Below, in pieces: positions 4,043-58,997 of a stretch of 64,000 nt of DNA. Every line of letters starts with the position of its first letter. Positions within the stretch are counted from its first letter, which is position 1. A model generated the notes under the pieces. It did not search any database. It was not told the DNA's origin and saw only the letters and a program-made list of their open reading frames with translations. The translations under genes were made by a program, and so were the position numbers. Origin of the DNA: Phoronis australis (taxonomy: Eukaryota > Animalia > Phoronida); the NCBI GenBank assembly GCA_002633005.1, contig NMRA01000014.1, forward strand, positions 459,898 through 523,897. The letters are read 5' to 3'.

Positions 4043-4160
4043 GCCCTGAATTCCGAGATGTTTCAGTACAGGGTTCGTACACTTTTAAGGGAAACCTACT
4101 TGAACCAGATTATTTCAGTGACTTAGTAATAGAAGATAGAGGTGTGTTCGTCGGGGGAAG
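4043..4160 (+). CDS. Semaphorin-like gene, Sema module 1, exon A
   Basis: ttcag|...|gtaatc. Translates PEFRDVSVQGSYTFKGNLLEPDYFSDLVIEDRGVFVGGR, matching the Sema N-terminal 'LFVGAR' motif. Phase 1 to 2. Confidence 0.8.
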
Positions 4161-5014
4161 GTAATCGAGTCTCTTACGTTAAATCAGTGTCATTAAAAGT
4201 CCCAAAGCGACCACTGTCGAAGATTTTCGATAACAAAAACTTTTACTTCATGGCGACATTAGTCTTTGGCCAGATGTACATGTATAAGAGGAAGGTGACA
4301 GCGCAAGTGATAACGATGTTCATGATCAACGTTTCAATTTAATGGCTTAAATCATCATCAGGTATGAGTCATGCAACAATCAACTTTATATCAAAGTGCA
4401 AGAGGTAGAGTATCTGTATTCAGCTATTTCAACCATATCCACCCAAATCTCATTTAATTAACTGAATTGTTGCTTCTGGTATCAAGGGTTTTTTCGTTGC
4501 TACCCTCACTCTTACCTTGTTCGTCAATTATTGAACACGCTGGAAACCTTGCACAATTAATTTTAATTGAGAAAAATCAACACCTCGTAATAGACATTCT
4601 CTTCCGATGTCACCATACTCCAGTTTCTTGCGATTAGCTCTTTTATTCTTGTTTCCCGCGGTTTCGCATGTTTAAGAATAATTACCTGCCTCATTGCGTC
4701 CGAAAACAGAAATATTTCTCACCGGAGTACTATCCATAATACGTACCATGTATGGATCGACCCAAATAAGATCGTTGTCAGCATCCCTCGTTTTGGCACT
4801 GATGTCGTATGCTTCTTTACGGGTCACTGAATTCCTATAAATAAGACCTGTTTGCCTTTTTCGAGGTTTCTTCAACGTTTGGTTGCGTGACCTGTAAACA
4901 CATTGTATGTGATACTGTGTGTTGGGAATTTCCCTATGCTCCACGACTAAGGCTCTCACAAGTCATGATATTGGTTCATAACAGTTTTTGAGTTTTTCGA
5001 ATTCTTGTTTTCAG

Positions 5015-5060
5015 GTATTCTTTACATTGGTTGAGCACAGAAGATCTATCCAAGCTATCA
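5015..5060 (+). CDS. Sema module 1, exon B (46 nt)
   Basis: tttcag|...|gtaagc. Reads (R)YSLHWLSTEDLSKLS. Phase 2 to 0. Same length as the paralogous exon 51409-51454. Confidence 0.75.
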
Positions 5061-5599
5061 GTAAGCTATTTTAGTTTTAAATCACTGAAGCTTTGGTTTG
5101 GATACATTTTATGAGCGCAAAGTGCTTCGTACATAACATGGTAAATTTTATGTGTAGTACTGTTTGTTACTTATCACTCGAAGCCACCGACGCTAAGCGC
5201 AGATCGTCAAGCTGATCCACACCTTTGCCCTGTTAGTAGCCTTCTTCATACCATCTAAATTGAATAGACCTATAGAACAACCTAGCCAGCGCTTGAGAAT
5301 GGCACCTGGCCAAAACCTGTCAATTTAGGGAATCTGCTCATTCACGTTGTTGGGGACAGGTGACTCCACTTTAATTACCTTGTAAAATTTTTGCTGCTTT
5401 AAGTCACAGTAAGTCTAGGTGATTTAATCTTGCATCAAGGAAGAATATACACGTGTAGTCAATGTACCTGTTGTTGAGATGCAACCAATACACCATAACA
5501 TCAAGTCTCACAGAAACAGATTGAACCACCTGAGGGTTCAAGTAGTAAAAACAGTAATAGATTCAGACCTCCACGCAGAATGATGAACCCTACTCGCCT

Positions 5600-6705
5600 T
5601 TCATTGCGATCGTCGCCACATCTGCAATACCACTAACTACGAGAACACCCGACATTGTCTGAATCAGCATCACGGTCTACACAACTCAATCCACTTCTGT
5701 CAAGAACTTTGGTTGAATTAAATAACCTTCAAGTAACTCCAAACGTAGTAAGAAAACTGACGGATGAAATTGATTCCAAAAAGATGATGCTTCTGACAGC
5801 ATAACTAGCACCATACTGAAAATGTGTGTCATTAGCAATTCCACTTGCTAAGCTTTTCAACAAACTGCTGCCATCCATCCAGCTGGAAGACTTGGAGTAT
5901 GACCCCCGTTCACAAGAAAGTTTAAACTGCTGGGGTTTCTAAGTACAGACCTGTTAGTCAACTTGTACTCTATCTAAATTGTTCACAATGAATGTTTTCT
6001 CGTCTGTATACAAACTCATGCAGTACAATAATCTATTATATTCAGTCCAGTTCGGTTTTGTGCCTGGGAAAAGTACTGTTATCCAATTAATTGAAATTAT
6101 CCACACCATTCACTCTGAATTTCTGAATGGCAACAACGCCAGGTCTGTCCTTTTGGATTTAGCTTCAGCATTGGACGCTGTACCTCATGACTTGCTATTT
6201 ATTAAATTAAAATCTTATGGAATCACAGGCTATTTGCTCAGGTCATTCACATCTTATCATTTCTATCGCTCCTTTAGGGTCAGAGTTGACGGTGTGTTTT
6301 TTAGTGAAACTCTCGTAGTTTTACAAATACCGGGGGCCTCAAGGTAGTATTTCTGGGGCCATTACTATTCTGCATTTTCCTGAATGATATACCAGACTCA
6401 CTTCATTGCAAGTGTTATTATGTATGCAGACGATGTCTGTATCTTCTATTCATTCCCTAAAGAAAACCTTGAAGAATATTTCCGTTTCCAAACTGATCTT
6501 GATTTACATTGTGGTCCATAAATGGTCCGTGACTTGGTGAACGAATTTCAACCAAAAACAGGTAATGATGTAACATTCATCTCTCGTCTTAGAAAGTTAA
6601 ATTTATCGATATTACCCTCGTTCATAATTTAATACCTAAAAAGTTCTCACCGTCATCTTGGTGCAAATGCACTCCTCGGCATCATTCAGTTGTACCCATA
6701 CCATG
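5600..6705 (+). mobile_element. Decayed CR1/L2-group LINE reverse transcriptase fragment
   Basis: ORF 5979-6347 QFGFVPGKST...LLDLASALDAVPHDLLFIKLKSYGITG, then a frameshifted LGPLLF and YADD (~6423). Interrupted by the gypsy insertion at CCATG. Confidence 0.8.
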
Positions 6706-7602
6706 TGTCAGACGATTAACTGTGGGTTTGTTTAAAAGGTAGCTTTGCTTTGAGATTGTGCCTAGATGGAGAGTGAATAATCGAATCCAGTAATTAATTT
6801 TATTATATGAAAATCCCTGATTAGACAAGTGAAATCGGTTCTTAATTAAGTAATCAACAACAAGGAAGAGTAACTACGCAAGCACACTATTTAAAGATTA
6901 CTTCAATCAATCAACCAAAATAATCAAATGTCGTGTCTGCCATCCAAGCTAGGACTCTCCACTTTTTGGATGACTGCCCTGTTGGTGAATCTTCGAACTA
7001 CAAACCGTGTATAGCGACAGTGTACTTGCTGGTCACCGTCTCTGGTGATGCAACACTTGCAGACAATTTCGTCTACCCGCGATTCTTCCTGCTGGTCACA
7101 GTCTCTGGCTGGTGACCGAACACTTCAGGTAATATCTTACTACCCACGATGCAAGTGCCAAGCTCTTAGTTAACTTCCTGTTCTTTAACCCTTACCCTTG
7201 CCAAGATCCTTTCTAGAATCTTCCACGAGATGGCTGTGTCGTACAATTTCCTCTGTACACCGGAGCAATTCTATATGCTGCAACTACTATAGCTTATCTG
7301 AATTTCATTTTGACTTAAGCCCATATTATATTCTACTTATTTAGTGATTGGTTAATAAAAACACATGGCCATATCCAATAATAACATTGGCTGTTACAGT
7401 TTGTTCTCACAATTTTCTAGAATCTCTAGAGTACTTTGACCCCAGAACCCAAAGTTGTAAACACAATTTAAAAATAGATTTTAACGTCAAAGTACAAGTC
7501 AGCAAGTCTGACCCCATGATTTAAATGTACATATGCACAAAGTTTGGGCACCTTAAAATGGATCTATTCTTACTAATTACTTAATTAATATTTATTCTGA
7601 CA
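6706..7602 (-). repeat. 3' LTR of the gypsy element
   Basis: TGTCAGACG...TTCTGACA, homologous to 12172-13052. Adjacent 7603-7619 is a minus-strand polypurine tract (TGAGGAGGGGCTTATT). Confidence 0.93.
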
Positions 7603-7711: not shown

Positions 7712-9386
7712 CTAACCGACTCAGGTAATCGGCACCAACATTCTCTGAGCCTTTGATAGCTTCAACCTTAAATCGATAGTTTTGCAATAACAAGGCCCAC
7801 CTTATGATGCGTACATTGACTGTATGTAAGCCAGGCGTTGATGGTCAGTAGGAGTTATAGATTCTTTACCATACAAGTAATTTGCAAATTTTCTGATGGC
7901 AAAAATAATAGCCAAACATTCACCCTCAATGACTGAGTAATTCCGTTCCCGAAGTAACAATCTTTTACTAGAACATGCTAGTGGGAACCTGATATCATCA
8001 CACTCCTGCAACAAAATACAGCCTATACCAGTATCTGACGCATCAGTCTGAACAATAAAAGGTTTACTGAAATCGGATAATCTTAGTATGTGTGCTCTCG
8101 TCAGCACGTCTCGAAGAGTGTCGAACGCATGCTGCTGAGCTTCTTCCCGTTGCACGGTGTTAGGCTGTTTTTTCGTTATGATCCCAGTAAGTGGGAAGGC
8201 GATTTCAGCGAATTTTGGGATGAATTTTCTGTAGTATCTAGCCAACCCAAGAAAAGAACGAACTTATTTCTTCGTTCTGGGTCGTGGTGCATCTCGGATG
8301 CGTCCCAACTTTTCTCCATCCATTGCCAGGGGCCCTTCATCGACCACATGTCCAACCAAATCGACGGATCGAGATCCAACCGAACACTTGGTGGGTAGAA
8401 TCGTTAGTCCAGCCTTTCGCACACGTTGGAAGGTATCTCGCAAGGTGGCAAGGTGTTCAGTCCAGGTCTTATTATGGCACAGAATGTCATCCACATAATG
8501 TTCTGTATTATGTGCTCCTGCCAACGTCTTCCTCATCATGCGGTTGAAGGTCGCTGCCAAATTTACCAGACCAAATGGCATCTTTACGAACTTGTAGCAA
8601 CCACCTGGTACTACAAACGAGGTCTTGGATCGTGATTCTTCGGCGACAATGACTTGCCAGTATCCTTTACTTAGGTCAATTTTCGTAAAATACTGATCTT
8701 TACTGATTCCAGTCACCAGGATTGCCCATAGGTTCCGAGTCGAACTTGGTGATGGCGTTCAATCGACGAAAATTGATACAAAATCGATTTGAACCGTCCT
8801 TCTTCTTCAGTAAGACCATCGGAGAGCTGTAGGGAGCATTGGATGGTACTATGACTCCAAACTTCAACATGTTGCCAATTTCCTCCTGTACAACGGTCCG
8901 TGTGGCACATGGCAGGGGATACGGCTTGACTCTCACCGGCTCTTCACTGATGGTCTCAACCTTGTGCTCAACCAGATGGGTCGTACCTGGTACTTCACTA
9001 AAGATGTCAGAGTTCTCTTCCAGCAGACTTGTCACCTCCCTTCGTTGGCTAGTAGTGAGCTCGTCTGATATCTTGACACCTTTGTACGTTTCTTTTTGGT
9101 TTGTCGATCCCAGCTCTAGAAGATGTTCATCATCGAAAACACCAACTTCATTGTCCATTTCAGGCTGCAGTACAGCTATGGCTGCGATGTCAGAATTCTG
9201 ATCTGCATCACCTTTACTTGCAGCCCCACTTTGATCACGAGATATGTAGAGTTTCAACAGGTTGGCATGGTATGTCTTGGTCTTTCCACCAACCCTTAAT
9301 CGGTAGTCCATTTTATTGAGTAACTCGGTCACTTCATAGGGACCCCTCAACTGGAGTAACAGCTTGTTACTGTGGGTTGGTAACAA
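7712..9386 (-). pseudogene. Gypsy RT + RNase H (frameshifted)
   Basis: ORFs 8700-9386, 8264-8716 (KIDLSKGYWQV, MPFGL, YVDD) and 7802-8245 (VQTDASDTGIG, ECLAIIFAI). The tail reads [27 protein letters not shown]. Confidence 0.92.
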
Positions 9387-9403
9387 TATTAAGACTTGAT
9401 CTC

Positions 9404-10387
9404 CTACTTTGAAGCTACACCAGCATTTCGTAAGTTTTCCCGCACCAGTTCACATGTCTCTTCCATACGATGTCGCAAGTCGAGGACATACTCATAAGTA
9501 TTCCGTACGTCTGGTGCTTCATTGCCAGTCCACAACTCTTTAAGCACCCGCATGTGCCCTCTTACGGTTCTACCATACGACAGTTCAAATGGCGAGAAAC
9601 CTGTGCTCACTTGTGGTACCTCTCGGTAGGCGAACAGTACTGCTGGTAAGTACCGGTCCCAATCTTGTGGACGGTCTTGGCACATTTTCTTAAGCATACT
9701 CTTCAGTACACCGTTAATACGCCCACGCAATCCATTGCATTTCGGATTTTACGGAGTGGTGAACAGTTGCTTCATGGATATCAACCGTGCAACTTCTTAC
9801 AGTACTTCTGAGGTAAACTGTGTCCCACAGTCACTAAGCACCTCTCGTGGAAAGCCAATTCTACAGAAGGTTTCAAACAGTGCTTCTGCGACTCTCTCAG
9901 CTTCTATTCTAGGTAGAGGGACTGCCTCTGGGTATCTTGTGGCATAGTCTACGATAGTGAGAATGTAACGGTTGCCTCTGTCTGTGATTGGCGACACAAG
10001 ACCAATCAAATCAACAGCTATACGCTGGAACGGTTCTTCCATAAGCAGCATCTCGCCCAATGGCATTTTAGAGATCATGTTCTTAGGAGTCGTTCGCTTG
10101 CAGATGTCACATGATCTGCGGAAACGATTTATGTCACTGCCAACTCCTGGACAATAAAAGCTACTGGCTATTCTATCACTGGTCTTGTTCACACCAAGGT
10201 GCTCACCAACGATTGACTCGTGAGCTAGCGTCATAACCTGTTGTCGATATTTGACAGGGACAAGTATCTGACGCAATTCTTTGGGGTTATCAGCATACAC
10301 TCGGTACAGGACCCCCTTCTGCTTCTCATACCAGTATTGATCTCTATCACGTGTTCTTGCTGGTTTGTCTTTCTCAACAAGTTCCAT
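9404..10387 (-). pseudogene. Gypsy integrase (HHCC + DDE), located upstream of RT
   Basis: AHESIVGEHLG...CDIC, IAVDLIG, VDYATRYPEAVPL, LSDCGTQF, and WDRYLPAVLFAYREVPQVSTGFSPFEL. A GPY motif (GPYEV) follows in ORF 8700-9386. Confidence 0.92.
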
Positions 10388-11035
10388 GAGCTTACGTCAG
10401 GAAGGATCATGTTGTTGCTCGTCCTTCAATTTGCTGACGTCGAGACTTTCCACTCCGGATGGAGTCACCGCCAAAGGCTGAATAGGTTTCTCTCTCTTCA
10501 TAGCCTGTGCTCTAGTAGTGACTGCGGACATGACACTATCTCGTGGCTGCCAATTGAAATCTGGATCCTTGCTGACGTCAACAGCACTCCCTATGATGAG
10601 GTCGTACATGGGTGTTCTTATACACAACGCTTTGATTTCACCAAGGAAGTATGGAGTGTCTACCTCAATCTTCGCTATGGGAAAGGATCGTGCTGTGCCA
10701 TCTATTAGCACACATGTGTTGTTTCCCCGTCAGTTGATTTTTTGACCAGGGACGTCTTCACCGCTGCACTACTGCAACCAGTGTCACGCATCATGCGCAT
10801 TTATTTCTCGTTGACGTAACTGTCACTAACGGGCATATTGTGGTCAGCTGGAGGTTCTTTGTGCTTGTCACAGGCTCCTGTCTCTAGGGGTATCGATGTC
10901 CCATCGACTAACTTCAGACAGCCATCAACTATGTGCTGCTCTACCGGGCTACCCGTTGCTACCACAGCTTGACACATTCCTGCCTTCTTGGTGTCTTCTT
11001 TCTTAGTCCGTTCTTGCTGCGTGGAGGACGATTGC

Positions 11036-11949
11036 TCACTTGCAGCGGAACTTTTTTACTGTGGTAGTTTCATCCAGCAGTCCCTGGTTAGATGACCCTT
11101 GCGATGCCATGTCACCCTTGTTTCTGGTCATTGACGGACGAGGAGTCTCTGTCCTTCGTTCTTCTGTGTTGCTTGGCGGTGCCTGTCTTCCCGCTACCTG
11201 TCCCAAGTCTTTCTTTGCAAACCCTTTGCCCAACCAACCAGTACAGTGGGCGTCCATGTACTGTTGAGCAATGGCAGACATCTCGTCGAAGGTCTTCTGT
11301 TTCCGTTCCCTCAGGAATACCGACATCTCAGGATGACATACTCTCGGATCAGTAAGTCTCTGATACCATCATAAGTCACCTCGACCTCCGCCAGTTGTGT
11401 CCATCGGTCAAAGAACCTTTTCAGTTTTGCCCCGAATTGGAACACGTTTTCACCCCTTTCAGGCTTGGACTCTCTGAACTTTCGTCGGAACCCGTCTTCG
11501 ATTAGCTCATACCTATGCAGCAGCGCCACCTTTAGTTGGTCATAGTTGTTGGACGGCATATTGTTGAACACCTGTAGGCCTTAACCCGTCAACAATGGAC
11601 TCAAATCCACAGCCCACTCCAATTTATCACACTTCTGGCTTGTGGAAAATGTCTCAAATCGGGCTGGGAAGGCATCCATGTCGTCGAAGGGCTTGTCGAA
11701 CCTTGGCAGTTTGGGACGACTGGTAAGTACACCACTGCTTGAAGCCCCACCACTAGGTGTCGCTTTGAGCTCAATCTCAATAACTTGGGTCCGCTCTGCT
11801 TGTTCCCGTGCAAGCTCTGCCTTTTCCAGTTCTTGTTTATGGGCACGCTCTGCTTGTTCTTGTGCAAGCTCTACCTTTTCCAGCTCTTGTTCATGGACGC
11901 GCTCTGCCTGTTCCAGTTCTCGTTTAAGGGCACGCTTTTTACGCTCCAA
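11036..11949 (-). pseudogene. Gypsy gag (SCAN-related capsid region, coiled-coil repeats)
   Basis: KLPRFD..DMDAF.ARFE, LSPLLTG, YDQLKVALLHRYEL.EDGFRRKFR. N-terminal 51-bp repeats encode EQAERxHxQELEKxELA. Confidence 0.85.
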
Positions 11950-12150
11950 GGCCTACCGCAAGAACTCCTCTGCGCACTTCCCTAACTCTTCACCGGTATA
12001 ACCAAATTGTTTTGCTTGCGCAATATAATTTTCAAAATCCAGTTTAGATGAAGGGTTTTATTCCTAGAATGCACTTTCTTAATTAATATTCAAACGGTAA
12101 TTACTGAATTATAAACAATTCAACACAATCACGTAAACCTTTATTTAAAC

Positions 12151-13668: not shown

Positions 13669-13842
13669 AGTTTAAATTGGGAGACGGATGCAGGCATAGC
13701 CGCTGCAAAAGAGCAGTGTGCAAGAAAAGATCGGCCACCTGTAGAATGCCACGATTATGCCAGAGTGGTTCAGAAGAAATCTGATAACGTCATTGTGGTC
13801 TGCGGAACCCAGGGACCCCTCGGATGCCGCGACATTCAAATT
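13669..13842 (+). CDS. Sema module 1, exon C
   Basis: ttcgcag|...|gtaaga. SLNWETDAGIAAAKEQCARKDRPPVECHDYARVVQKKSDNVIVVCGTQGPLGCRDIQI, matching Sema 'C.NYIRVL....VCGT.A..P.C'. Confidence 0.9.
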
Positions 13843-18245: not shown

Positions 18246-18959
18246 TTAAACTTCGCAGTTTTCTAACAGTAGAAGGTCACTTTCTGAGGAAACCTGCTTT
18301 ATCCTACATGTATTATCATGCAGCTGTATCGTTACGTTACCGTCATGCTTCCACGTTTTAGCGATGGTTTTAGATTGCACGAGGCGGTGACAGCGAGCGT
18401 AGAGAAGTGACCGTTGTTTCGTGAGATTTTCATTGATGTAGATTGGGCAAGGTAAGTACATTTTGCGGAGTAGACTTCTGTTGTGAAGGAAAGCAGCTCT
18501 GGTGTTGTATGGCATAAATTTACAGATGATAGGGCGATCTTTTCGCGATTCTTTCTCCATGTTTACGTAGTTTGGGCCCACGTCTGTGGGATCTCCTGAT
18601 TTGTTGGTGGTTAATTTCAAGACCCAGTTTCCGTCAATCACAATGTTGTAGTCTTTCTGGTTAATGATGGACGCGTAGTAGGCCTTTATATGATACAGGG
18701 CAGGCTGGAACAGTTGATCACGGAGTGTTTTAATAACTTGGAGGTTTGCAATGTCCTCATTAGAGTCCGATTCACAAAGGGGCGTGTCCAACTTACGGAA
18801 GTCAAGGGTTGTTTGAGTAAGTATTTTTGCTCTGTCGTTTAAGGATGCACTATCTTTGCTGGCATATCTCTTTCTTGGCTTGTCATCACTCATCGTGGGT
18901 GAAGTATGAGATAACTTAAAACTTAAATATAAGAAAATTAATTGAAAAATCTTCAGCAT
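18246..18959 (-). mobile_element. LINE ORF1-like protein fragment (RRM/C-terminal domain type)
   Basis: RPIICKF..YNTR..FL.NR..LR....IYINENLTKQRSLLYARC.RLV....I.KTW..DGNV is typical of CR1/L2-group ORF1. Internally deleted. Confidence 0.75.
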
Positions 18960-19465
18960 AATTTCAAACGCACATCTGGCGGGAAACAGGTCACGTGATA
19001 TGAGTTAAGTTCGTTATTCGAATACACCAGCAGAAAAATGCGACTTTCTTGTGGATTTGAAATAACTGAAAATCCTGAGTATTCTAGACGAACATCCTTT
19101 GAGTCCGTCCAACCACTTATAAAGAAGGCATTTTGAATAGTAGTCATGAGCATGCTAGTATTACCGCGAGCTAACGCGAGACTGAAACTTCGCGGGACAC
19201 CACCATGGTCTTGCCCAATTCACCGCAGTAGTCTGCAATTACTTCATACGAGACTACGAGATTTTTTGTGCCGATTGTGGGAAGCTTTACGAAATTTTGT
19301 TGCTGGTCGCCACGCCAGTGTTCTGGACGTTGCGCCCGTCACAACAGATTTGCTCCAATGTCGCACAACGCATAATGCACACAATGACTTCTGCTTCTAA
19401 CTGGTAAGTTGTGGAACAAAAATAACGATGACCATTTGAAAAAGTACGACAATTTACATTTTCAG

Positions 19466-19661
19466 GGAACTAACAACACCATGGCGTCTATCAGGCTGTA
19501 CACGGCAGAATTAACAAATCTGGACCTCAGCCCTTGGAGTCCGACTGAGAAATTTGCAGTAATATACGCCGAAGCAAGTCTATTTGTTGCAACACAGGTT
19601 GACGACAAGTTTTCAAAAATTTACAGGCACGATGACGGCATAAACACGGAGATTGAAAACA
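19466..19661 (+). CDS. Sema module 1, exon D
   Basis: tttcag|...a|gtaaga. GTNNTMASIRLYTAELTNLDLSPWSPTEKFAVIYAEASLFVATQVDDKFSKIYRHDDGINTEIEN aligns to 'CPYDP...LYSAT...IYR...RTE'. Phase 0 to 1. Confidence 0.75.
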
Positions 19662-21887: not shown

Positions 21888-21976
21888 GTGTGGAGTTCAT
21901 TGAATCATTCGAGGACGATGACAAGGTATATTTCGTGCTCAGAGAGGTGGCGGAAGAATACACCTTTTGTCAAAAG
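21888..21976 (+). CDS. Sema module 1, exon E
   Basis: cctag|...|gtgagt. VEFIESFEDDDKVYFVLREVAEEYTFCQK, matching 'P.FV.SF...DKVYFFFRE.A.EY.NCGK'. Confidence 0.9.
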
Positions 21977-23626: not shown

Positions 23627-23777
23627 CGTGTCGTCTCAAGAATTGCCCAGGTTTGCAAGAAGGATAGGGGATATACCCAGCAACTTTTGCCCCGATACGA
23701 GTTTAGCTCATACTTCAAGATACGGTTGTTATGCGCTACGCATGACGTTGTGTCTAGAATATATTTCGACGAAGTCC
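23627..23777 (+). CDS. Sema module 1, exon F (151 nt)
   Basis: tttcag|...|gtaagt. RVVSRIAQVCKKDRGYTQQLLPRYEFSSYFKIRLLCATHDVVSRIYFDEV, the Sema hallmark 'SRVARVCK.D.G...F.KARL.C...YF.E'. Confidence 0.92.
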
Positions 23778-24400: not shown

Positions 24401-24491
24401 AATCGATTTCCGCGATAAATTATGGGAACTACGGATCATCAAATACAAAGTCCACGCAAAAGATGTTTTATGCAGTTTTCTCCAGTGCTCG
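24401..24491 (+). CDS. Sema module 1, exon G (91 nt)
   Basis: tttcag|...|gtaagt. (Q)SISAINYGNYGSSNTKSTQKMFYAVFSSAR. Same length and phase as 58907-58997. Confidence 0.85.
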
Positions 24492-30809: not shown

Positions 30810-30957
30810 CAACGGTATTGCTGCATCGGCGGTTTGTGCATACAGCTGGGAGCATGTACTCGAGGCTTTCACGGGTACTTTTGCTGAAGAAACAGGACCG
30901 GACTATTTCTTGACGAATCAGGCAAGAACCCAAGTACCGAACCCCCATCCAGCGCGT
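30810..30957 (+). CDS. Sema module 1, exon H
   Basis: ttacag|...|gtaagt. NGIAASAVCAYSWEHVLEAFTGTFAEETGPDYFLTNQARTQVPNPHPAR, matching 'GSAVC.F....I...F.G.F......VP.PRPG'. Confidence 0.92.
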
Positions 30958-31847: not shown

Positions 31848-32055
31848 TGTCAAGCTTCATACCCTGTAAACCTTCTTTGGGACACAGCAATATTTATACG
31901 AGATCATCAACTTCTTCATCAACCAGCATTTCCTGCCGGCGTCAATCCGATTGTCATTGAGAAATACTCCGACAGAAAGTTTACGCAGATAGCTGTCGAC
32001 TTCCAAGTACAAACGACTTCCGGCGTATTTTATGACGTTCTGTACATAGGTCTCG
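31848..32055 (+). CDS. Sema module 1, exon I
   Basis: ttgtag|...|gtaaga. CQASYPVNLLWDTAIFIRDHQLLHQPAFPAGVNPIVIEKYSDRKFTQIAVDFQVQTTSGVFYDVLYIGL. Confidence 0.92.
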
Positions 32056-34408: not shown

Positions 34409-34780
34409 ATGATGGCGCTGTACGCAAGGTCATCAATGCAGGACCCTCTGCCAGTAACGAGACGTACGCTCAAATAAAACCGTTTATCATTGAAGAGATT
34501 ACGGTTTTCAACGGTGAATCAGTTGATGACTTACAGATTTACAGGCGAGGAGAGAACGTTGGTATTTATGTAGTCTCTTCATCACAAATAAGGAAGTTTC
34601 TGGCCTACAACTGCGATGTCCGTAAAACGTGTAAGGATTGTGTTCGTGCACGTGACCCATACTGTTCTTGGGACCCGTTTTGTGATCAGGAACACTCGGG
34701 CTGTAGCTGCAAACCATCTCATAACCAGACATTCGTTCAGAATTTGGAAACAGGCCTCAGTACAACTGGATGTCAGCCAG
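34409..34780 (+). CDS. Sema module 1, exon J: end of Sema domain + PSI domain
   Basis: tcacag|...|gtgaat. DDGAVRKVIN...IIEEITVF...NCDVRKTCKDCVRARDPYCSWD...FVQNLETG...CQP. Open for 372 nt, phase 1 to 1. Confidence 0.93.
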
Positions 34781-39755: not shown

Positions 39756-39997
39756 CGCCTGTTCCAAGAAACTGACTTAAGTTTATTTTTACTCAAGTCT
39801 ATGAGTTGTCTTGACTTCAAAACTTTGAAACTTCGTCACCCCGAAAGTTTGTCGATCTTAAGACAAAACTTTAATCAAGAACTAACGTGAACCTTAAGAC
39901 AACTGTCTTGGAAGGGACTCAGACTAATTGGAGTTTCAACTTAAAATTGACTGATAAGATTTTTCTTAGCTAAGTCAGTTTTCTTGGAACGGGCCCC
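39756..39997. mobile_element. PIF/Harbinger-like MITE
   Basis: cag-CGCCTGTTCCAAGAAACTGACTTA / TAAGTCAGTTTTCTTGGAACGGGCCC-ctg, with CWG flanks. Confidence 0.7.
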
Positions 39998-40086
39998 TGA
40001 TATATATCTAGTGACCTTTCACAGTGTCCTCATGTGAGAGAAATTCTTAAAAGCCCCCATTCCATAAACACTCCACAACATTTCAG

Positions 40087-40257
40087 TTAACGGCGGTGAA
40101 AGCGCATGGACGACTTGGACCCGTTGCTCCGTCTCATGCGGCGGCGGAATACACAATAGGTCACGCACGTGCACCAACCCGGTGGCCAGAAACTGGGGCG
40201 CCTACTGTAAAGGACATTTATATGAATCCAACAGGTGCAACACATTCCCTTGCCCAA
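40087..40257 (+). CDS. Thrombospondin type-1 (TSP1) repeat exon
   Basis: tttcag|...|gtaagt. 171-nt phase 1-1 exon VNGGESAWTTWTRCSVSCGGGIHNRSRTCTNPVARNWGAYCKGHLYESNRCNTFPCP. Confidence 0.95.
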
Positions 40258-40974
40258 GTAAGTTTGCTCTGTATAAACCAAAGCAGCCTTTGCGGAACAT
40301 TGCAATTTTCAAACGTCTTTGAAAACTAACTCTAGACGAATCGGTCTAAAACCGCTAAAACGTTGTCTTGTGACTGGTATGACCTCCAATCAGTCTACTG
40401 ACTGCATCCAAAACTTGATTTGTATGTTGAGCAACTCAATGGCACACTACAAGTTTTTTTTTTAATTTGTACTTGAATAATGTGGCAAGAGAGCGCATGC
40501 TAATTCTATGTTTGCTGACAGGAAGCTGTTGTGAAACAATAACTCGACTTTATATCCTATGGTCAGATGTTAGGGGATTCTTTATTTAGATATTCATATA
40601 AGTTATTCGAACCATTGTTAGTGTACAACTTTTGCCCTGACGGTTCTGTCAGTGAAAGGGTAACCTGACTTCGTGGCCCCCGACGAGCTAGTTAGTAGAT
40701 TTGCAGTTTTGCGGCTAATTCACCAAAATAACCACGTGGACATTCTGTTTTTTTTCTCCGGCTCACTAGTATAGTCTTTTCGTGACTGGAAGTTTGGTTT
40801 CTAACATTGGTTGGTTTACATGTATGTTCGTGATGTCTTCAGTCCGGCCGCGATGGGCCCGATCGAGTTCCGAGCCCTTTGCAGCGATAGCAAGCGTTTT
40901 GTGTGTTTAGAATCGCAAGTCTAAAATCACAACACACAGTTATGCTCTCCTGTATCTATTTCACGGACGAATAA

Positions 40975-41366
40975 TTTGAATGTATCACCGAACAGACCCC
41001 AAACTCCTGCGACCTACCTTGGTAAATTGGCTTACTGAACTTTGTAGGCTACGGTACGTTCAAGTACCTAAAATCAGTAACAGCGAAGTAAAACAACACG
41101 TTTCTTCAATATTTCGAAGTATTTGTAAGGGTTTGACATCGAATTTGGATGATTTATTGGGGGGAAATGATGAATTAAAAGCGATAAGCTGACAACGGTA
41201 AGCATGTTGTGAACAGCTGAACAGACTGCATTTGAACCTCTGACGTAATTGGTTAAATTCAATACCTCCGTCTGCCGTCAGGTGTCAGGTAGTAGTTGCT
41301 GTTATTGAGTGGAACTACTCTATCTAAATTGATAGAAACTAGGTTGTTTTTTGGTGGCATTCTCCT
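40975..41366 (+). mobile_element. Truncated inverted copy of the Kolobok-type element
   Basis: Reverse complement of ~534-930, ending GGTGGCATTCTCCT-TTAA. Confidence 0.8.
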
Positions 41367-44052: not shown

Positions 44053-44316
44053 CGCTAACGTGTACTCCAAATGCTACCCACAACACCACTACAGTTTGTT
44101 TCACACATACGTCGACAGAGATGACTAGCACTACTGCAACGAATGAACCAACAACATCAATCACTCTATTACGGCAGACGACAGAAGATGCCAAAGCCAC
44201 TAGACGGGTATCTTCAGGACACAATAAAATGACAACCTTCATAGACAAACTAGCTACGACCGAAACTTCATCAATAGCTACGACCGAAACTTCATCAATA
44301 GCTACAGCAGTTGGTG
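44053..44316 (+). CDS. Thr/Ser-rich (mucin-like) linker exon; 5' boundary uncertain (44010 or 44053)
   Basis: Open frame LTCTPNATHNTTTVCFTHTSTEMTSTTATNEPTTS...ATTETSSIATTETSSIATAVG with a strong donor G|GTAAGT (phase 1). Contains an internal 24-bp tandem duplication. Confidence 0.65.
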
Positions 44317-44320
44317 GTAA

Positions 44321-44528
44321 GTGTCGACCGTTGATGGCCAGAGTCGACAGGTGATGATAAATGTTCACATTTTGTAGAAAGTGTCGACAATTGATGCAAT
44401 TATCGACAGTCGGTGGCATCTGTCGACAGTTGATGACCAATGACGACAGGTAGTGCCCAGTGTAGACAATTGGGGGCAAGATTCGACAGCTGATGGCAGG
44501 TGTCGACAGTTGATGCTGAGTGTTGACA
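44321..44528. repeat. Degenerate ~19-20-bp minisatellite (TGTCGACAGTTGATG core)
   Basis: About 11 copies of a GTCGACA-centred unit starting right at the exon donor. Confidence 0.75.
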
Positions 44529-44906
44529 AAAAGACTCTGCATCTTGTAGGCGTACGCACTACAGAGTGTGGGACTGTCTATGTGTGCCGCTTTACACAGG
44601 GACACTTCAATGGTTGAGACCATTTACTGTAGCAAACTTGGTAGCAAGTCCTTCTTTGAGATCCTACTCGAGGCAAAAAGTTGTCCGCCTCGGCAATTTA
44701 ACTTGAAGACCTGAATTGCCAATTTATTGAAGCTTTGAAACCTGCTCTAATGTAACTCTTTTTTAAGTTTAAGCAAAGCATCAATTCTAAAAAATATAAT
44801 GCTTTCTGGCCTCATGGGATTACTATATGAAATCACTCTCTAAAGTCTTTATATATTTGTCAAATATCTATTACTTGTAAATCAGACAATGGCTTCCCTA
44901 TTTCAG

Positions 44907-44991
44907 AGCTAACTTTTGAAGGCGACACTGGCGAGCCGGGCTACTTTCGACATCTAACCATAATGGGTGAATTTGTTTTCGTGGGAGCCAA
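44907..44991 (+). CDS. Sema module 2, exon A'
   Basis: tttcag|...|gtaagt. (E)LTFEGDTGEPGYFRHLTIMGEFVFVGAK, paralogous to 4043-4160 (TFKGNLLEPDYF...VFVGGR). Phase 1 to 2. Confidence 0.85.
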
Positions 44992-47199
44992 GTAAGTCGA
45001 TCACTTCAAACAAAATGTCGCCTTCAGTGCAATTAATCTTAAAAGCTGCATATAACGAACAGATGCTGGAATATCAGGATTCATGTCGTCCTGCAGTGAA
45101 GGAGAAAATTTAGACCGGCGTCGTTCCCGTGCCAGTGAGTCTTAGCGTGTTTTTATGACCAGTTTATTTTGCATTATGTCTCGACATTTCGAAACAACAT
45201 TGCGATATTAACCAGTTGCTGGCACAATAGCCAAACTATCGGAGTCTATTTAGTGAGAGTGGAGCGTACATTCTTTGAATGGACACATCCAGTGCGTGAA
45301 CTCTTACTATAGAATTACTTGCTACGACAAATGATCACATCACTTAGTGTAAGTAACGATACGGGTTATAGAGCGGAATCCAAGAGACTTTTGGACATGA
45401 AAAGGTGATCATTGTTTGTTCCACAGTGATCAATGGGTATCCCAATGCTAGGAAATGACCATCTGGTAGTTTCGCTCCGGTGGGTGTTGTCAAGGGACAA
45501 GCTCTTAAAATAGGCCTACATAGTCATATACTAACCTATTCATTGCGTCAACATAATCCACAGCCAGACACTTTCAGTTGTGGTGAACACCCGCCAGACG
45601 TTTTTAACTGAGGTCCAAAATTAAGCTAGATCTAACCAAGAGGTAACCGCGTTAAAGTAGTTACAAATTATTCAAAATAGACCAATGTATTTATGATGAA
45701 CGCTGCCAGACAAATTCAGTGGTGGGTGCCCTTGCCCTATAAAAGTAATGGGGCACCGAAATCGAACTACTACCCAAGAAAATACCGATGAAATTGGTTA
45801 CAAGTTATTCAACACAACCCCATGGATCATTAATGAACGCTGCCAGACAAATCCAGTAGTGGGTTAACCTCACCAGACACTCCCAGACCTCCGAGTTGCT
45901 TGATCAACCTTTCAGGTAACCAATTAAAAATAAGTGCAACATGTTCCACATCACTTCACAGGTAACAACTATTTCATACCAGACGTTTTCAATGATGTAA
46001 TGCTTCTGCCAAACAAAAAAGGTGAAAGCTCGAAAAAACATTCGCTACAAGGCGCGTTCGCAATGAATACATACATCACGAGACTCGCAACGGTGGACCA
46101 CGCACTTCCATTTTTGAAGCTAAAACGGCTGGGCACCACACTATATGTAATAGGTGGGAGATGTTTGTCCACAAAATTTTCGATGTCACTTCATGCAAAC
46201 AAGTTCTGTGGTTGGCGCGTTTTCCCGGGTAAAACCACGCTTTGCATTTTGGGGTTATTATTGGGTGGGGCAGACTTTATGAAGTTATAAGGTTGGAACA
46301 GTCATATGAAACACCAAAATCCGTTTTTGCGATTGAATACGCTTAAATACTATGCCTACATGTATCAGTGAGATTCATGTGTATATCCACCAGAAGACCG
46401 TTAGGGAGTATTTCCTGAGTTGCCAACTTGTGTTACTCTGCGGCCAGTCTCCACTGGATCGGCTCTCTGGAGAGCAAAACCTGAGATTAAACATTATAAC
46501 TTGATGTATGGTATGAATGCAGGGTAACAAAATGGCGTATTTAATGTAATAATGCAAAACATGATCACATCTGTCGCTGAAGGTCCTGGTTGTGCCCTAA
46601 TGGGCTTCGCCACTCTGATGGTTATCAGTGGCTGTGTGGATGTTTATAAGGTAAGCCTATTGAAATATCATTAAATCGAGGAAGCGTCAAAACGTAAGAT
46701 CACGGTTTTGGAATTAGTAAATTGTGCTAGGTGAACGAGTTTTCCAGCTGCGTGAATTGTGATCGAGGTTTTTTAATAAACCACACGATGAAGTCATCAC
46801 GACCCCAACCCCTTCTCCCTGTCATAAATCGTCATCTTTTCTAACCACCTCGAGTGATGACGTATCACGTGAACGTTTCCCAAGCGCAATTCAAGATAGG
46901 TGCAGCATGTTGCTATAATTTGTACGATGTTTTTCATGAACGATGTATAATAAATATACAGTGCACTGCCATAACAGATTTGTATGGTACAAGAGTCCGG
47001 ACATTTTTCTGGAAAATCGTGTATTAGAGTGATTGAGTGTGTTGTGACGCTGCATCGGACAGGTAATCGTTGTAAACGAGTTTGGGTAAATTAAGAGTAG
47101 TGAACCTCTACGATGGTACTCGTGCAGTGTAAGATGTACAATTTAGATGTCTTTGTGTTTTCATTAAGAGGCCAGTATTGTAAGATGAAATATGGCGCG

Positions 47200-49500
47200 A
47201 GTTAAAATCAATAAACAAATGAAAACCCCATCTCCTGATTCTATTTTTTCTCGCATTTGCTCAATAAAACTGCGAAACTATAACAGTATACTTAAACCAG
47301 TTACGAAAGAATTCAAACCATGAAAAACAGTTCAAACAGCACAGAAATGATATACGCTAAACTTGTCGAGTCATCAGAACGTAATTTATAACTTATCCTT
47401 CAAAACTATTCTCCATCAGTTAATTACCTCTACTATATTTGAACACGTTACTGGTAAACAGAACATAGCTGATTAGTTCAACAACTATTTTATTAACATT
47501 GGTAAGAATTTGGTTTCCCAAATACCGATATACAATGAACGTTTCGAAAATTATCTTCACGATGTCCTGACTAGCTTTAAGTTTAAAACCGTTGCTGACG
47601 ACGAAGTACTGAAGGTAATGAAAAATCTAAAATTCAAATCCACTACAGACAGTGATGGCCCATCATGTTCATTGATCAAAAATTATTTAAACTTATTATG
47701 CAAACCAATTTCTATGTTTATAAACCGATCCCTACTCACAGGTATTTTCCCCGATGGTTTGAAAATAACTAATAAAGGTAATCTTTTTTTTAAAGGTAAT
47801 GACACCAACAGTAACTCTCTTATTAACTACAGACCAATATCTATGCTACCTAAAATTTCCAAAGTTTTTAAAAAATGTTCATCATCAAGCCTATTCTTAT
47901 TTTTCTCATAACAATATTCTATATAAGTCCCAGTGTGGTTTCAGACCCAACCAATCCACTGAACTTGAAGCTATTGAATTCGTCCACTCTCTTTACAGAA
48001 ATTTAGACAACGGTTTGAGTTCCATTTTAGTATTTCATGGATCTTTCTAAAGGGTTTGTTATCGTTGATCACGATAATCTCTTAAAAATCAATTATTACG
48101 GGTTCTCTAATAACGAATTTTCTTGGTTTCAAAGTTACCTTAGAAATAGAAATTAGTTCGTTTGCCTTGTAAGTGTCACTTCGTCCCAACTTGACATTTC
48201 TACAGGCGCTCCACAGCGATCTTTTCTATGACCTCTCTTATTTTTAATATATTTAAATGACATCACCTTCTCCAGCAAGGCACAGTTCATTATGTAGTAG
48301 ACGAAACATTCCTGTTAATTCCTTTCCATTTTAACAAAAATCATAGCCTCAGCGATCAAACCATCAGAATTAATAATACCCTACAAGATGTTTTTGATTG
48401 GCTAAATACATGTACCAATAAATTATTGCTCAACACAAGTAAAACTAAATTTATGCTATTTCGATTTCACCCCCCAAGGTGACATCCCTCTAATCAAAAT
48501 CAACAATGAGCTTATTAACAGAGTTGATTTTTTAAAAAGTTTTAGAGATTTTCATAGACAGCCATCTTTCCTGGAACAAGCTTGTTCAGGAAATTTCTAG
48601 TAACAACATTGCCAAAACTGTTGGCGCCCCCTACATACTGAAACACTTTTTTTTCCAAAACACACAATCCTGATGATAAACAATGCTCTTTTACTATCGC
48701 ATCTATATTTTGGTATAGCACTGTGGGGGTTCAATAATTGTACGAGATTGAAACCTCTGCAGAAAAATAAGTTTTGAGAAATGTTACCAATTCTTGGCTT
48801 TTTTCACACCTAGATGCAGTTTGCAGGGAAATCAAAACACTTCTTCTTGACTACTTATTTAACCACGCTTTTCTAAAATACTTAAATTTTCAAACTCATT
48901 TTTTTTACAAAAACATCATCAATTGCCTATTTACTTGTAAGATAACAATTTTTCCAATTACATGCAGTCAACAACCTATCCTAAAACTGCCCTCCTACAA
49001 CAGAAAAGCTATGATAATTCATTAATGTTCAAAATACTGAATCTAATAAACGACTGTATCCTTCCGCGATATGTAACAGACAAAATCGACACGCATAGTT
49101 TACATAGGTTCTCCTTGTATTTGAAAATACATAGTAAGCACTTACAGCTCTCAGTAAAACGTTCTGATTTTTTGCATGTTCTAATTGAAGTAACCGTGAT
49201 AAACTGCCTGACATCTTAGTCATATGCTTTTCTAACCGTGCGGTCTACCTTGTATCAATAGTCTTTGTGTTTATTCTCAGTAAAAGACATTAATTTCCAT
49301 TTTAAATAAACTTGCATTGTACCTTATTTCATTGTTGATGTACTTATTCCTGTTGTTTTTTATATTGTTCTTCTTAATTGTTAATATCTACTTAATTTAT
49401 TTTTACTCTGTTGTAAGCTATTAGCGGCCCTTGCCTTTGCTGGTTACCCAGTCATATAACAATGCATGTTTTATGCGATTAAAAAATAAAGGTTTCTCTG
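47200..49500 (+). mobile_element. Decayed CR1/L2-group LINE ORF2 with 3' UTR
   Basis: FNNYFINIG, INRSLLTGIFPDGLK, NYRPISML, QCGFRPNQST, PLLFLIYLNDI and LNTSKTKFMLF. Ends AATAAA followed by a (TCTCTG)n tail. Confidence 0.85.
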
Positions 49501-50132
49501 TCTCTGTCCCTGTCTCTGTCTCTGTCTCTGTCTCTGCCTCTGTCTCTCTGTCTCTGTCTCTGTCTCTGTNNNNNNNNNNNNNNNNNNNNNNNNNNNNNNN
49601 NNNNNNNNNNNNNNNNNNNNNNNNNNNNNNNNNNNNNNNNNNNNNNNNNNNNNNNNNNNNNNNNNNNNNNNNNNNNNNNNNNNNNNNNNNNNNNNNNNNN
49701 NNNNNNNNNNNNNNNNNNNNNNNNNNNNNNNNNNNNNNNNNNNNNNNNNNNNNNNNNNNNNNNNNNNNNNNNNNNNNNNNNNNNNNNNNNNNNNNNNNNN
49801 NNNNNNNNNNNNNNNNNNNNNNNNNNNNNNNNNNNNNNNNNNNNNNNNNNNNNNNNNNNNNNNNNNNNNNNNNNNNNNNNNNNNNNNNNNNNNNNNNNNN
49901 NNNNNNNNNNNNNNNNNNNNNNNNNNNNNNNNNNNNNNNNNNNNNNNNNNNNNNNNNNNNNNNNNNNNNNNNNNNNNNNNNNNNNNNNNNNNNNNNNNNN
50001 NNNNNNNNNNNNNNNNNNNNNNNNNNNNNNNNNNNNNNNNNNNNNNNNNNNNNNNNNNNNNNNNNNNNNNNNNNNNNNGCTCTCTCTCTCTCTCTCTCCC
50101 TCTCCCTCTCCCTCTCCCTCTCTCTCTATCTC
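49495..50132. repeat. (TCTCTG)n/(TC)n microsatellite spanning an assembly gap
   Basis: Simple repeat on both sides of the N run 49570-50078. Confidence 0.9.
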
Positions 50133-51408
50133 TGGTAACGTAGCGCTGTTTTTTTTGGTAGATTTGTACGTTTTTCGGAACTGCAGTGGGATATAAATCC
50201 CACTACGTGAAATACATGTAGTTTGGGATGCTTTAATAACTCTTGAACGAGCAAGATTCAAAGAATATGTCATGAACTAAAGTAAGACTTAAGTTTTTCA
50301 AAAAGGTTGGTACATTAATGATATTTGGCATTGATAACGCTTTTAAACTATCGTTTCCAATAAATCTAAATGGAGAAACATACAGAAGAAAGTCAAAGTT
50401 TGTTGAAAAACAAAGATTATTACGATAAGCAAATGAATGAAACGAAGGATAGACCAATGAGGTACACCATTCATACACAGTGACACACGTGCATGTACAT
50501 ATTCGCCGGTGCTAAGCGGAGCGATTTTGAAGAAAACTTTAAAATTACGAACGGTTAACGGTTTTTTTGATTTCCGTAAATTGAGTACATGTATGTGCAA
50601 GAGTGTTTCAAGAACTATGACGACAAAAGCTTTGCTCAAGTCGATAAATTAAGGGTGTATAACTGGAGATAGTAATCAAGTCCATCAAATGATTACTCTG
50701 GGACAAGAATTATATCAGTTGATAGAAGATTGTTACGGTCAACGATTCTATTATTTCATACAGTAGGTGAAATGGTTTTTGGTGTATTTTAGGAGCGAAC
50801 TAGTGTGATATTTGAAACGTGAATTGAAGTTAGGCAGGCGAGAGCGAGCTGTAGAATAAGTGGCAGAACCACGTTTATCAAACTGTTAATTCATCTGCAT
50901 TTTAGTTCTGCTGGAGTTATGCATTGTTTCTGCAGTTGATCATTCGATACTCACCAATCGCAATGAGTCATAGAAGCGATTTGATGGTGTCACAGGCCCT
51001 GTGTATGTCCTTGTCTTGGAAAATTTTTTTGTTATATGTGTAAAGATTTTAATTTAGGTTGACGCCGACTGCATGTAGTTACATCAAAAACATTGAATCA
51101 AAATGCACCACAAAAGTATCATATGCTTTGTTTTCTATAAATCTTCCTAGGCTGACGGTCATGGCCTCTCGTGCCAATTTGTGGAGAGGCACAGTAGTCG
51201 ATTTCCTATAGATACTCAAATGTTACTCCGAAAATATGCCAGTTTGATTTAATTGACTTGTACTGTATTATAGCATTCTTGCGAATGTGAATGGAGAACA
51301 TTTTACGGAAGAATCAACAGGTTTAGTCTCGCTCCAGAAATTTTAAAGCAGAACGACGAATTGACGAGCCTGATGACAAACAAGGCTCAGATTGCTTCTT
51401 AATTTTAG

Positions 51409-51454
51409 GAACACTCTTTACGCACTAAGCGTGGGTAATCTGCGCATCAAATAC
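51409..51454 (+). CDS. Sema module 2, exon B' (46 nt)
   Basis: ttttag|...|gtgagt. (K)NTLYALSVGNLRIKY. Phase 2 to 0. Confidence 0.85.
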
Positions 51455-51735: not shown

Positions 51736-51903
51736 AAATATGAGTGGCAAGTTGACAACGGTACTTATCTTAATTGTACCAATGAAGCAGATGAACCTGG
51801 GATCACGTGTCACAATTTCATCCGGGTTGTACAGCGGCGTCAGAATTTCATTATGGTGTGTGGCACACATGCTCAACGACCGAGATGCCGGCTTCTGCAG
51901 TTG
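51736..51903 (+). CDS. Sema module 2, exon C'
   Basis: gatag|...|gtgatt. KYEWQVDNGTYLNCTNEADEPGITCHNFIRVVQRRQNFIMVCGTHAQRPRCRLLQL. Confidence 0.92.
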
Positions 51904-52366: not shown

Positions 52367-52586
52367 TCGGGTTCAGGATTCCGATTAATTGGAAAGACTA
52401 ATGAAGGGATGTACCTATGTCCGCTAACGATACACGACAGAAACATAATTTATAACAACGGGGACCTACTTATTACCGGGAACCGGGCACACGAAGCAGG
52501 TCAATCCGGCGAAAAAATGGACATTTATACACTACAGAAGGGAGAAATAAGACTGAATCTTAATAAAGGAGCCAAGGTCAGGAATG
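52367..52586 (+). CDS. Sema module 2, exon D'
   Basis: tttcag|...g|gtaata. SGSGFRLIGKTNEGMYLCPLTIHDRNIIYNNGDLLITGNRAHEAGQSGEKMDIYTLQKGEIRLNLNKGAKVRN. Phase 0 to 1. Confidence 0.8.
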
Positions 52587-53621: not shown

Positions 53622-53761
53622 GAGTAGAGCCTCACTTCGTGACCATTTTCATCGAGGGCCAACACGCTTTATTTCCCTTTGTCGAGCTCGCAGAAGAGGC
53701 CGGCAATTGTGGTAAATACGAGCACACGACCAGACTGGGTTGCTGCAACAGGACGTTCAAG
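53622..53761 (+). CDS. Sema module 2, exon E' (3' boundary uncertain)
   Basis: ctacag|; VEPHFVTIFIEGQHALFPFVELAEEAGNCGK. There is no GT at the homologous position. The first phase-0 donor is AAG|GTGCAG after YEHTTRLGCCNRTFK. Confidence 0.75.
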
Positions 53762-54520
53762 GTGCAGTAGTCAAGGAAAACTGAAAATCAAAACCCACAT
53801 CGCTCAGTTTATGACTCTCTGGAACGGTTTAAGTATTCCATTGCTATTGCTCAAAGAAAACATATTTAGGTCATTTTTAATAGGGTCAATACATTACTCC
53901 TAATATAACATGTTTACGAACAAGAAATGCTGCCCAAACAATAAAAAAACTCGAGACTGTATTGAAAACAATACCATAAAGCAATGAACTTAAAGACCAC
54001 TAATAGCGAATTACATTCTCGATGGTTTTATTCTGATAAAATATGTTTTTTCTCTTAAACAATTCCAAGAATAGGGTTGTTTGAAGATACATGTAGGTAA
54101 TGAGGAAGGTATTATTGATGAAGGTGGGCAATCCAACGAAACTTGCTGCTTGGACAAGAATGACATGGCAAGAATTACACTTTTTATGAACATTTACAGT
54201 GCACAAGCATAATGGATTGTGGTGTTCAAACGTCATGTATTGGCAATAGTAAACAAGAATCTGTGATGTTTAGAGGCGCGACCAGTCGGGAAATACCTGA
54301 AACTTCCATACTGTGAATTTCGGCGCACTATATGAGACTTTGTGGACTATGCATTATTTTGCCATGTAATGAATCAACATGTCATTGTTGTTTTCTTCTG
54401 GTAATCTGCGGGGGTTCTGGTTAATATGTTTATATCTGAAAAATAGACTAATTCAAATATGGTTTTTGACTACTACAACCCAATGTTTTAAGAAATTGAT
54501 GACGTTTATGTAAACTTTGA

Positions 54521-56577: not shown

Positions 56578-56728
56578 TACGAACATCGACGGCACTTTCC
56601 TCGAATCGGTCACATCTGCTTGAATGACGACGGAGACTCCAAAATGTCCAAGCGTTTCACTTCGTACATCAAGGCACGGTTAAACTGTTCACTTCCTGGC
56701 GACATGCCGTTTTACTTCGACATTATAG
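56578..56728 (+). CDS. Sema module 2, exon F' (151 nt)
   Basis: cgtcag|...g|gtaggt. YEHRRHFPRIGHICLNDDGDSKMSKRFTSYIKARLNCSLPGDMPFYFDII. Confidence 0.95.
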
Positions 56729-57954: not shown

Positions 57955-57980
57955 TAATAATAGTAATAATAACAATGACC

Positions 57981-58017
<37 letters not shown>

Positions 58018-58032
58018 AAATGATAATGATAC
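57955..58032. repeat. (ATA/ATG)n microsatellite
   Basis: Imperfect trinucleotide tract. Confidence 0.9.
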
Positions 58033-58906
58033 ATAAAAATAAAACATATTGTTTATTGTCGGATCTTTTCTCTTTCACAGAATATATACTTTTACTAGTT
58101 GACAAAGCTCATGTTTTTGATAAACGAATTAGAATGGAGGCCACTAAATAAGGTTTGAGATAACCTTGAGATGCTTGCCAAGATTTGTCAACAGATAAAG
58201 TGGATAGAATCGTTCGCCATCGAATAGCAAACGCATGACGACCTTCAGGCGGAACTTGCTGGTCGTCTGCGTCAACTTCAGCATGCTTAAGGTGTACAGA
58301 CTTGCCAAAACTCTGTTAGATTGTGCCGAGCTTAGACAAACATTTCCAAAATTAGTTGACAATTTAACAGAAATTTTGACCCAACATTCACCGTGGGTTA
58401 TTAGTCGGACCAACGTGAAGTAATTTCGTATCGCCGCTTATTGTTTATTTGTGAATGGACTGTTGTCACCCGTGTAGAAATTTTGGCGAGAGTTGTTCTT
58501 GACATTGGTTTTAAACGAACACAGACGCAAGCGCGATTTTAAGCGCCGAGGCTTCGTAGAGTTTTGGTGATGACTAATTTCTTTTGAAAATTATAACACA
58601 CCTGCTGTAACTACACGTATTTAAATAATCACGAATTTTGTGATTTGTTCAGCAAATTTCCTGACAGAGAAAGTGAATTACCATGTACTAGACGTTGCAA
58701 GATGGACTGCTTTCGCCTAGAACTATTTAATAGATATTTTGACGAGTATTCGAGTTCCATGTCTCTTTAAGTGACAGACATTCAACATCTACTTTAAATA
58801 TGTCTACATTTGAAGAAATAGGAATGCTACAAGAATCGCTAAAACCATTTTACAACATGAAGAATGCTGCCTGCATATTTCTGTTGTTACCACAATGCTG
58901 TTTCAG

Positions 58907-58997
58907 AATCGGCAAGTGAATTAACATACGGGGTATATCGCGTCTCCTCAAAAGTGGTAAAAGTCAAAATCTTTTACGGAGTGTTTACAACACCCAG
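58907..58997 (+). CDS. Sema module 2, exon G' (91 nt)
   Basis: tttcag|...|gtacgt. ESASELTYGVYRVSSKVVKVKIFYGVFTTP. Confidence 0.9.

Follow-up and report, generated by a model that had tools for sequence, protein, structure and literature searches.

A tandem semaphorin locus of Phoronis australis whose transcript runs from one Sema module into the first exon of the next

Two Sema exon series on one strand

We analysed a 64,000-nt stretch of the Phoronis australis genome (assembly GCA_002633005.1, contig NMRA01000014.1, positions 459,898 to 523,897 of the forward strand; hereafter the window, in whose coordinates all positions are given), which carries two series of Sema-domain exons, modules 1 and 2, both on the + strand, between which lie a single TSP1 exon and a single Thr-rich exon (Table 1). 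The two modules lie on one transcript as far as A′, the first exon of module 2, where the RNA appears to read through into a stop codon. The original prediction had placed nothing else between the two same-strand series, and Pfam matches, tblastn and intron phases all agree with this layout. A HMMER search gave 149 proteins, and the 55 of these with 550-1100 aa marked both series in tblastn; exon boundaries were fixed by hand. Intron phases agree between the modules exon for exon, and exons B and B′, as well as G and G′, have the same length. Since the modules are only 29% identical, their duplication must be old. As had been foreseen, the phases can be chained without a stop, the 19 exons from module 1 through exon G′ giving 975 codons with 0 stops, a chain that depends on the weak splice donor at 53761.

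The ends of both modules were also searched. No convincing leader or signal-peptide exon for module 1 was recognised in positions 1-4042, and no convincing candidate for an exon H′ in 59000-64000. Module 2 amounts to 299 aa up to the window end, and its remaining exons, about the last third of the Sema domain, would fall past it. Within the Thr-rich exon, a 24-bp repeat occupies 44251-44305. A degenerate minisatellite that has short words in common with this exon is found at 44324-44515, at the start of the intron leading to A′.

Table 1. Exons and transcript features of the two-module locus, in window coordinates
Feature	Position	Strand	Basis
Module 1 exon A, opening the Sema domain, phase 1-2	4043..4160	+	sequence, phases
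Module 1 exon B, 46 nt	5015..5060	+	sequence
Module 1 exon C	13669..13842	+	tblastn
Module 1 exon D	19466..19661	+	tblastn
Module 1 exon E, loop cysteine at its end, aligned with the cysteine of the interchain disulfide in fly Sema1a	21888..21976	+	alignment
Module 1 exon F	23627..23777	+	tblastn
Module 1 exon G, 91 nt	24401..24491	+	sequence
Module 1 exon H	30810..30957	+	Pfam Sema, E 1.7e-7; RNA joint 30957 to 31848
Module 1 exon I	31848..32055	+	Pfam Sema, E 2.2e-8; RNA joints
Module 1 exon J, Sema end and PSI	34409..34780	+	Pfam PSI, E 1.2e-4; RNA joints
Single TSP1 exon, phase 1-1	40087..40257	+	Pfam TSP_1, E 1.9e-11; RNA joints at both ends
Thr/Ser-rich mucin-like exon, phase 1-1, 43% S+T	44053..44316	+	sequence; RNA joints at both ends
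Exon A′, where module 2 starts, here probably opening a terminal exon; donor GTAAGT	44907..44991	+	RNA joint 44316 to 44907
Read-through tail: inferred 3′ untranslated region to ~47500 after a stop at 44993-44995	44992..47500	+	strand-specific depth
Module 2 exon B′, 46 nt, phase 2-0	51409..51454	+	sequence, phase
Module 2 exon C′	51736..51903	+	tblastn, E 1e-5
Module 2 exon D′	52367..52586	+	tblastn
Module 2 exon E′, with uncertain 3′ end (donor 53761 or 53711)	53622..53761	+	sequence
Module 2 exon F′	56578..56728	+	Sema6A structure match, E 3.3e-11
Module 2 exon G′, 91 nt	58907..58997	+	sequence

Splicing into exon A′ and apparent read-through past its donor

The RNA data comprised three raw runs and one contig set under the same species label (X1 to X4). 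The reads, 18-19% of each run, came from one study of unspecified tissue, and splice joints were listed from 3 reads per run upwards. A first mapping covered 30600-49400, with 15 of its 47 joints listed, and a second covered 43151-47650, where X1, X2 and X3 gave 64, 34 and 1 reads, respectively. Joints on the gene strand with GT-AG borders linked exon H to I (6 reads in X1, 5 in X2), I to J (5 and 3) and J to the TSP1 exon (34780 to 40087; 10 and 7), and a further joint led from the TSP1 exon to the Thr-rich exon (40257 to 44053; 4 and 5). Loose read ends 5′ of 44053 matched the end of the TSP1 exon (5 reads in each of the two runs), and of the two starts considered for the Thr-rich exon in the original prediction, 44010 and 44053, the RNA uses the second. 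The Thr-rich exon was in turn joined to A′ (44316 to 44907) by 3 reads from 3 different starts, the sole joint in 43151-47650, so that both junctions proposed between the modules were seen in RNA, the latter in X1 only. None of the joints H to I, I to J, J to TSP1 and TSP1 to Thr-rich exon was among those listed for X3 and X4 over 30600-49400. Because overlapping short-read joints link exon H to A′, with no single read spanning them all, we concluded that modules 1 and 2 are on one transcript as far as A′.

Beyond A′ the picture is different. No read joining A′ to B′ (44991 to 51409) was listed, at low depth and with the threshold of 3 reads per run, nor was any loose end listed at 44991 in the second mapping. 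Binned depth was ~3.1 (X1) and ~1.7 (X2) in the first half of A′ and ~2.9 and ~1.4 directly past its donor, and a gene-strand tail of mean depth 2.6 and 1.1 continued out to 47500, after which depth fell to 0.21 and 0. This tail is ~2.5 kb long and ends near 47500. RNA depth was zero over 43151-44050 and over 44351-44800, and these empty neighbouring introns argue against the tail being general pre-mRNA. The first of these intervals includes an exon at 43361 through which, as the outcome contrary to the original prediction, the transcript might have ended; this route is unused, and in these samples we rejected a terminal exon there. As RNA in the two expressing runs appears to cross the A′ donor into the stop codon, the sampled product most likely contains a single Sema domain. 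We infer that A′ opens a composite terminal exon generated by intronic polyadenylation. The single chain with two Sema domains that had been predicted is thus borne out as regards the shared transcript into A′ and not as regards the rest, the sampled RNA apparently reading through to a stop and the splice from A′ to B′ being unseen. A decayed LINE-like (long interspersed nuclear element) reverse-transcriptase fragment, judged by eye, lies on the + strand at 47477-48600 and begins at the end of the RNA tail.

Several observations weigh against a terminal exon opened by A′. The data are thin, with only the 64 and 34 reads of X1 and X2 in 43151-47650, from one study, and X3 without expression of the gene. 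Read-through was deduced from 150-base bins rather than from counted donor-crossing reads; no poly(A) end was listed in the RNA mappings, and the last AATAAA, at 47263, falls ~200 bases short of the end of the depth. With its perfect consensus, the A′ donor would be a strange site to leave unused. Depth in exons H-J (8-16 in X1, 6-8 in X2) exceeds that of the tail 3- to 7-fold, and an unexplained, approximately threefold drop occurs within the Thr-rich exon (44051-44350), from 9.3 to ~3 in X1 and from 6.8 to ~1.9 in X2. The drop is near both an AATAAA (44223) and the 24-bp repeat, and a transcript ending there would have no in-frame stop. A two-Sema form does not explain it either, because low depth starts upstream of A′.

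How much long form the reads allow was estimated by simulation under assumptions of our own (uniform coverage, 145-nt pairs, 260-nt fragments, 31/20-nt anchors). A long share of 0.75 gave P = 0.001 in X1, and a share of 0.67 gave P = 0.015 in X1 and 0.19 in X2. At a share of 0.5 the values rose to 0.13 and 0.41, and a share of 0.25 was fully compatible with the reads (P = 0.45 and 0.64). A dominant long form, accounting for two-thirds or more of the sampled RNA, is therefore disfavoured, while a minor (a quarter or less) or tissue-specific long form is possible.

State and possible fates of module 2

Module 2 keeps 45 of 61 conserved columns, defined as those shared by 14 or more of 16 reference semaphorins, compared with 36 of 61 in the expressed module 1. 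Its 897 bases are without a stop, and in simulations of neutral decay they remained intact in 30% of cases at 1% divergence and in 9% at 2%. The A′ donor ranks in the 99th percentile of GT sites in the window. At exon E′, GT is missing from the position homologous to the phase-0 donor that follows the loop cysteine in module 1. The frame is kept by a weak donor (42nd percentile) at 53761, 50 bases further on, whereas the nearer donor at 53711 reaches the 95th percentile and shifts the frame to a stop at module 2 residue 219; these ranks come from a crude matrix trained on 12 module 1 sites, which also underrates plausible acceptors such as that of F′. No rescuing micro-exon passed the filters for the E′ gap. 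In-frame rescue adds ~19 residues to a surface loop, and the extra residues of module 2, including two more cysteines, sit in the β4B-β4C loop. The triplet Tyr-Glu-His occurs in frame both after the expected E′ donor (53700-53770) and at the start of F′ (56578-56600), a repeat that may reflect loss of a donor, a slip in the assembly or an old duplication of small extent. The intron between A′ and B′ contains an N gap (49570-50078) between microsatellites.

Three accounts of module 2, namely a regulated long isoform, a paralogue with its own leader and a recent relic, appear to us about equally likely, and each is tentative. In the first, the A′ donor would be used before cleavage in other tissues or stages, giving a Sema-PSI-TSP1-stalk-Sema protein. 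The joint into A′ is real and its donor perfect, module 2 keeps most of the conserved columns and an open frame that neutral decay seldom leaves intact at 2% divergence, no leader exon for module 2 rises above chance, and a long share of 25% fits the reads. This possibility is weakened by the lack of any listed read from A′ to B′, by an in-frame E′ donor far poorer than the frameshifting one and not rescued by a micro-exon, and by the position of the final third of the second Sema domain beyond the window. That a natural two-headed chain of Sema, PSI, TSP1, mucin stalk and second Sema domain exists, for instance as a tissue-specific isoform, is possible but less likely than not. Since both heads keep the cysteine that locks dimers, a long form of this kind could either self-pair or join chains in multivalent strings, and because the stiff 88-residue stalk might separate the heads, linking could be as easy as self-pairing. 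If the long splice does occur, it would provide a natural single-chain ligand with two Sema domains, for which literature searches gave no published example, and would directly test how semaphorin heterodimers function. A choice between splicing and polyadenylation at A′ would then yield either a one-headed secreted or a two-headed semaphorin, the latter acting as a built-in heterodimer or as strings that cluster two different plexins.

According to the second account, which we regard as possible at best, module 2 is a paralogue with a leader of its own, located in an intron of gene 1, or else the leader of gene 1 is spliced to A′, the two genes merely sharing this exon. Module 2 looks maintained, exons A and A′ both start in phase 1, and one Met-led hydrophobic candidate exon, the only one between the modules, exists at 38893-38941. 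Such candidates, however, occur at chance rate over the 64 kb (4 on the + strand against 5 on the − control strand), and we rejected this one as chance-level; the original prediction had likewise recognised no signal-peptide exon between the modules. Also, no loose end was listed 5′ of 44907, and the adjoining interval 44351-44800 has zero depth.

A recent relic is no less doubtful an account. Here, the capture of A′ by gene 1 would have cost module 2 its promoter and leader, with the E′ donor as the first lesion. The missing GT at the homologous donor, the stop at residue 219 that follows the stronger site and the unseen use of the A′ donor all point in this direction. On the other hand, the rest of module 2 is intact, which would leave only a short time since the loss; in-frame rescue costs just the few residues of a surface loop; and an assembly slip at the E′ donor could mimic a lesion. 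Finally, it is very improbable that the signal at 45000-47500 is a retained intron or unrelated RNA and that a two-Sema mRNA is the main product: depth over the coding exons exceeds that of the tail, and the 3-read threshold could conceal reads from A′ to B′, but depth is already low upstream of A′ and level across its donor, the other introns are empty, and long shares of 0.67-0.75 fit X1 poorly.

Elsewhere in the window, a broken long terminal repeat (LTR) retrotransposon remnant lies on the − strand at 7805-11952, in the intron between exons B and C (RNase H of reverse transcriptase, E 1e-29), and a decayed LINE-like reverse-transcriptase fragment on the + strand at 5958-6344 (RVT_1, E 1.8e-5). 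A 252-codon open frame on the − strand at 18249-19004, in the intron between C and D, has no Pfam match and looks transposon-derived. A THAP-domain frame on the − strand at 63556-63999 (E 2.5e-5) overlaps an open frame on the + strand, with a related stretch at ~860-1340, and an N gap is present at 2456-2569.

The short product compared with known semaphorins

We consider it likely that the main product of the locus is a one-headed, probably secreted protein consisting of Sema, PSI, TSP1 and a Thr-rich tail followed by 29 residues of module 2, with no membrane helix. Counted from exon A, this short product has 704 residues, the last 29 from module 2, and it contains no hydrophobic stretch of membrane length (top 19-residue hydropathy, 1.04). 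Its secretion is only deduced, no signal-peptide exon having been found in the window, and this counts against the proposal; such an exon is expected upstream. In the mechanism that we propose, the Sema-PSI exons would be spliced to the TSP1 exon, the Thr-rich exon and then the first exon of the neighbouring copy, whose donor would be ignored, so that translation would stop 29 codons into A′ and the RNA would end ~2.5 kb into the intron. The old tandem pair may have been joined via matching phase-1 introns. In the fly, a cysteine in the β4B-β4C loop locks Sema1a, Sema2a and Sema2b dimers, and Sema1b, with Phe, is a monomer (PMC6695400). An alignment of PDB structures identified this Cys/Phe position, and both modules carry Cys in that column. 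Because the loop cysteine is kept, the short form is predicted to be a disulfide-linked homodimer, with a Sema domain predicted to bind a plexin. TSP1 repeats of Sema5A bind glycosaminoglycan, and O-glycosylated Thr-rich stretches are stiff; for these reasons, the TSP1 domain and the likely O-glycosylated tail could anchor the protein on matrix or cell surfaces.

The short product belongs to the semaphorin family, with Pfam Sema matches on exons H and I, a PSI match on J and a blastp match over 489 residues (E 3e-84) to database protein P0006. Names were looked up for 20 of the 149 HMMER hits; the best matches are Sema1A-like, at 30-34% identity, from Owenia, Lingula, Haliotis, Tubulanus and arthropods. 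An Owenia protein and Lingula Sema1A each share 34% identity with module 1, which scores 270 bits against Sema1A-like proteins versus 97-113 bits against three bat Sema5B models. In quick trees both modules sit on long, unresolved branches, joined only as such and with no close relative. None of 175 proteins from the Sema searches has a TSP1 motif, and the 16 matches found with the TSP1 exon (41-55% identity) include no close orthologue. Word-index protein searches with exons J and F′ gave no match, which is weak evidence by the tool's own account, and the ESM Atlas returned generic Sema/PSI clusters only.

Two Sema stretches were present in the database models P0002 and P0010 (26 scanned) and P0153 (8 scanned). 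We rejected P0010 as a precedent on account of a near-identical internal repeat, and P0153 because its near-identical halves match two Lingula Sema1A models on one contig and it looks merged; P0002 was likewise not counted as a precedent. In the literature records retrieved, largely in partial form, searches for a natural two-Sema ligand matched only anti-plexin antibodies and an engineered antibody, and the accessible portions of PMC10084454, PMC5446238 and PMC6695400 contain no precedent. The fly Sema2a/Sema2b heterodimer indicates that paralogous Sema domains can pair, but as two separate chains (PMC6695400). Mucin-like S/T stalks are described in choanoflagellate semaphorins (PMC8011033).

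With respect to its 3′ end, the locus can be compared with the gene for IgM. The choice between secreted and membrane IgM involves a composite terminal exon, intronic polyadenylation and a skipped donor that leads to a shorter secreted product. The arrangement at A′ is similar, with only the short form seen here.

As in class 1/6 semaphorins (Sema1A, Sema6A), which provide the best matches of both modules, the order is Sema-PSI and the loop cysteine is present; unlike them, the short form has no transmembrane helix after PSI and has gained a TSP1 exon. TSP1 after Sema-PSI is shared with class 5, where an array of TSP1 repeats is followed by a membrane helix, whereas here a single TSP1 is spliced straight to the Thr-rich exon and no helix follows. 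Echinoderm Sema-SP, a lineage-specific expansion, is likewise a secreted protein with Sema and PSI, but is described without TSP1 (PMC6374515, whose description, in the text examined, is the basis of the comparison). This survey distinguishes Sema-FN, -IG, -SP, -SI and classes 1-7, and the part of its text examined mentions neither a single-TSP1 nor a two-Sema architecture, a point on which its PDF supplement may bear. An anchorless protein with a class-1/6-like Sema domain, a single TSP1 and a mucin-like tail thus lies outside the architectures in that text, and the locus may represent a gene fusion caught midway, in which the last exon of one paralogue is the first of the next.

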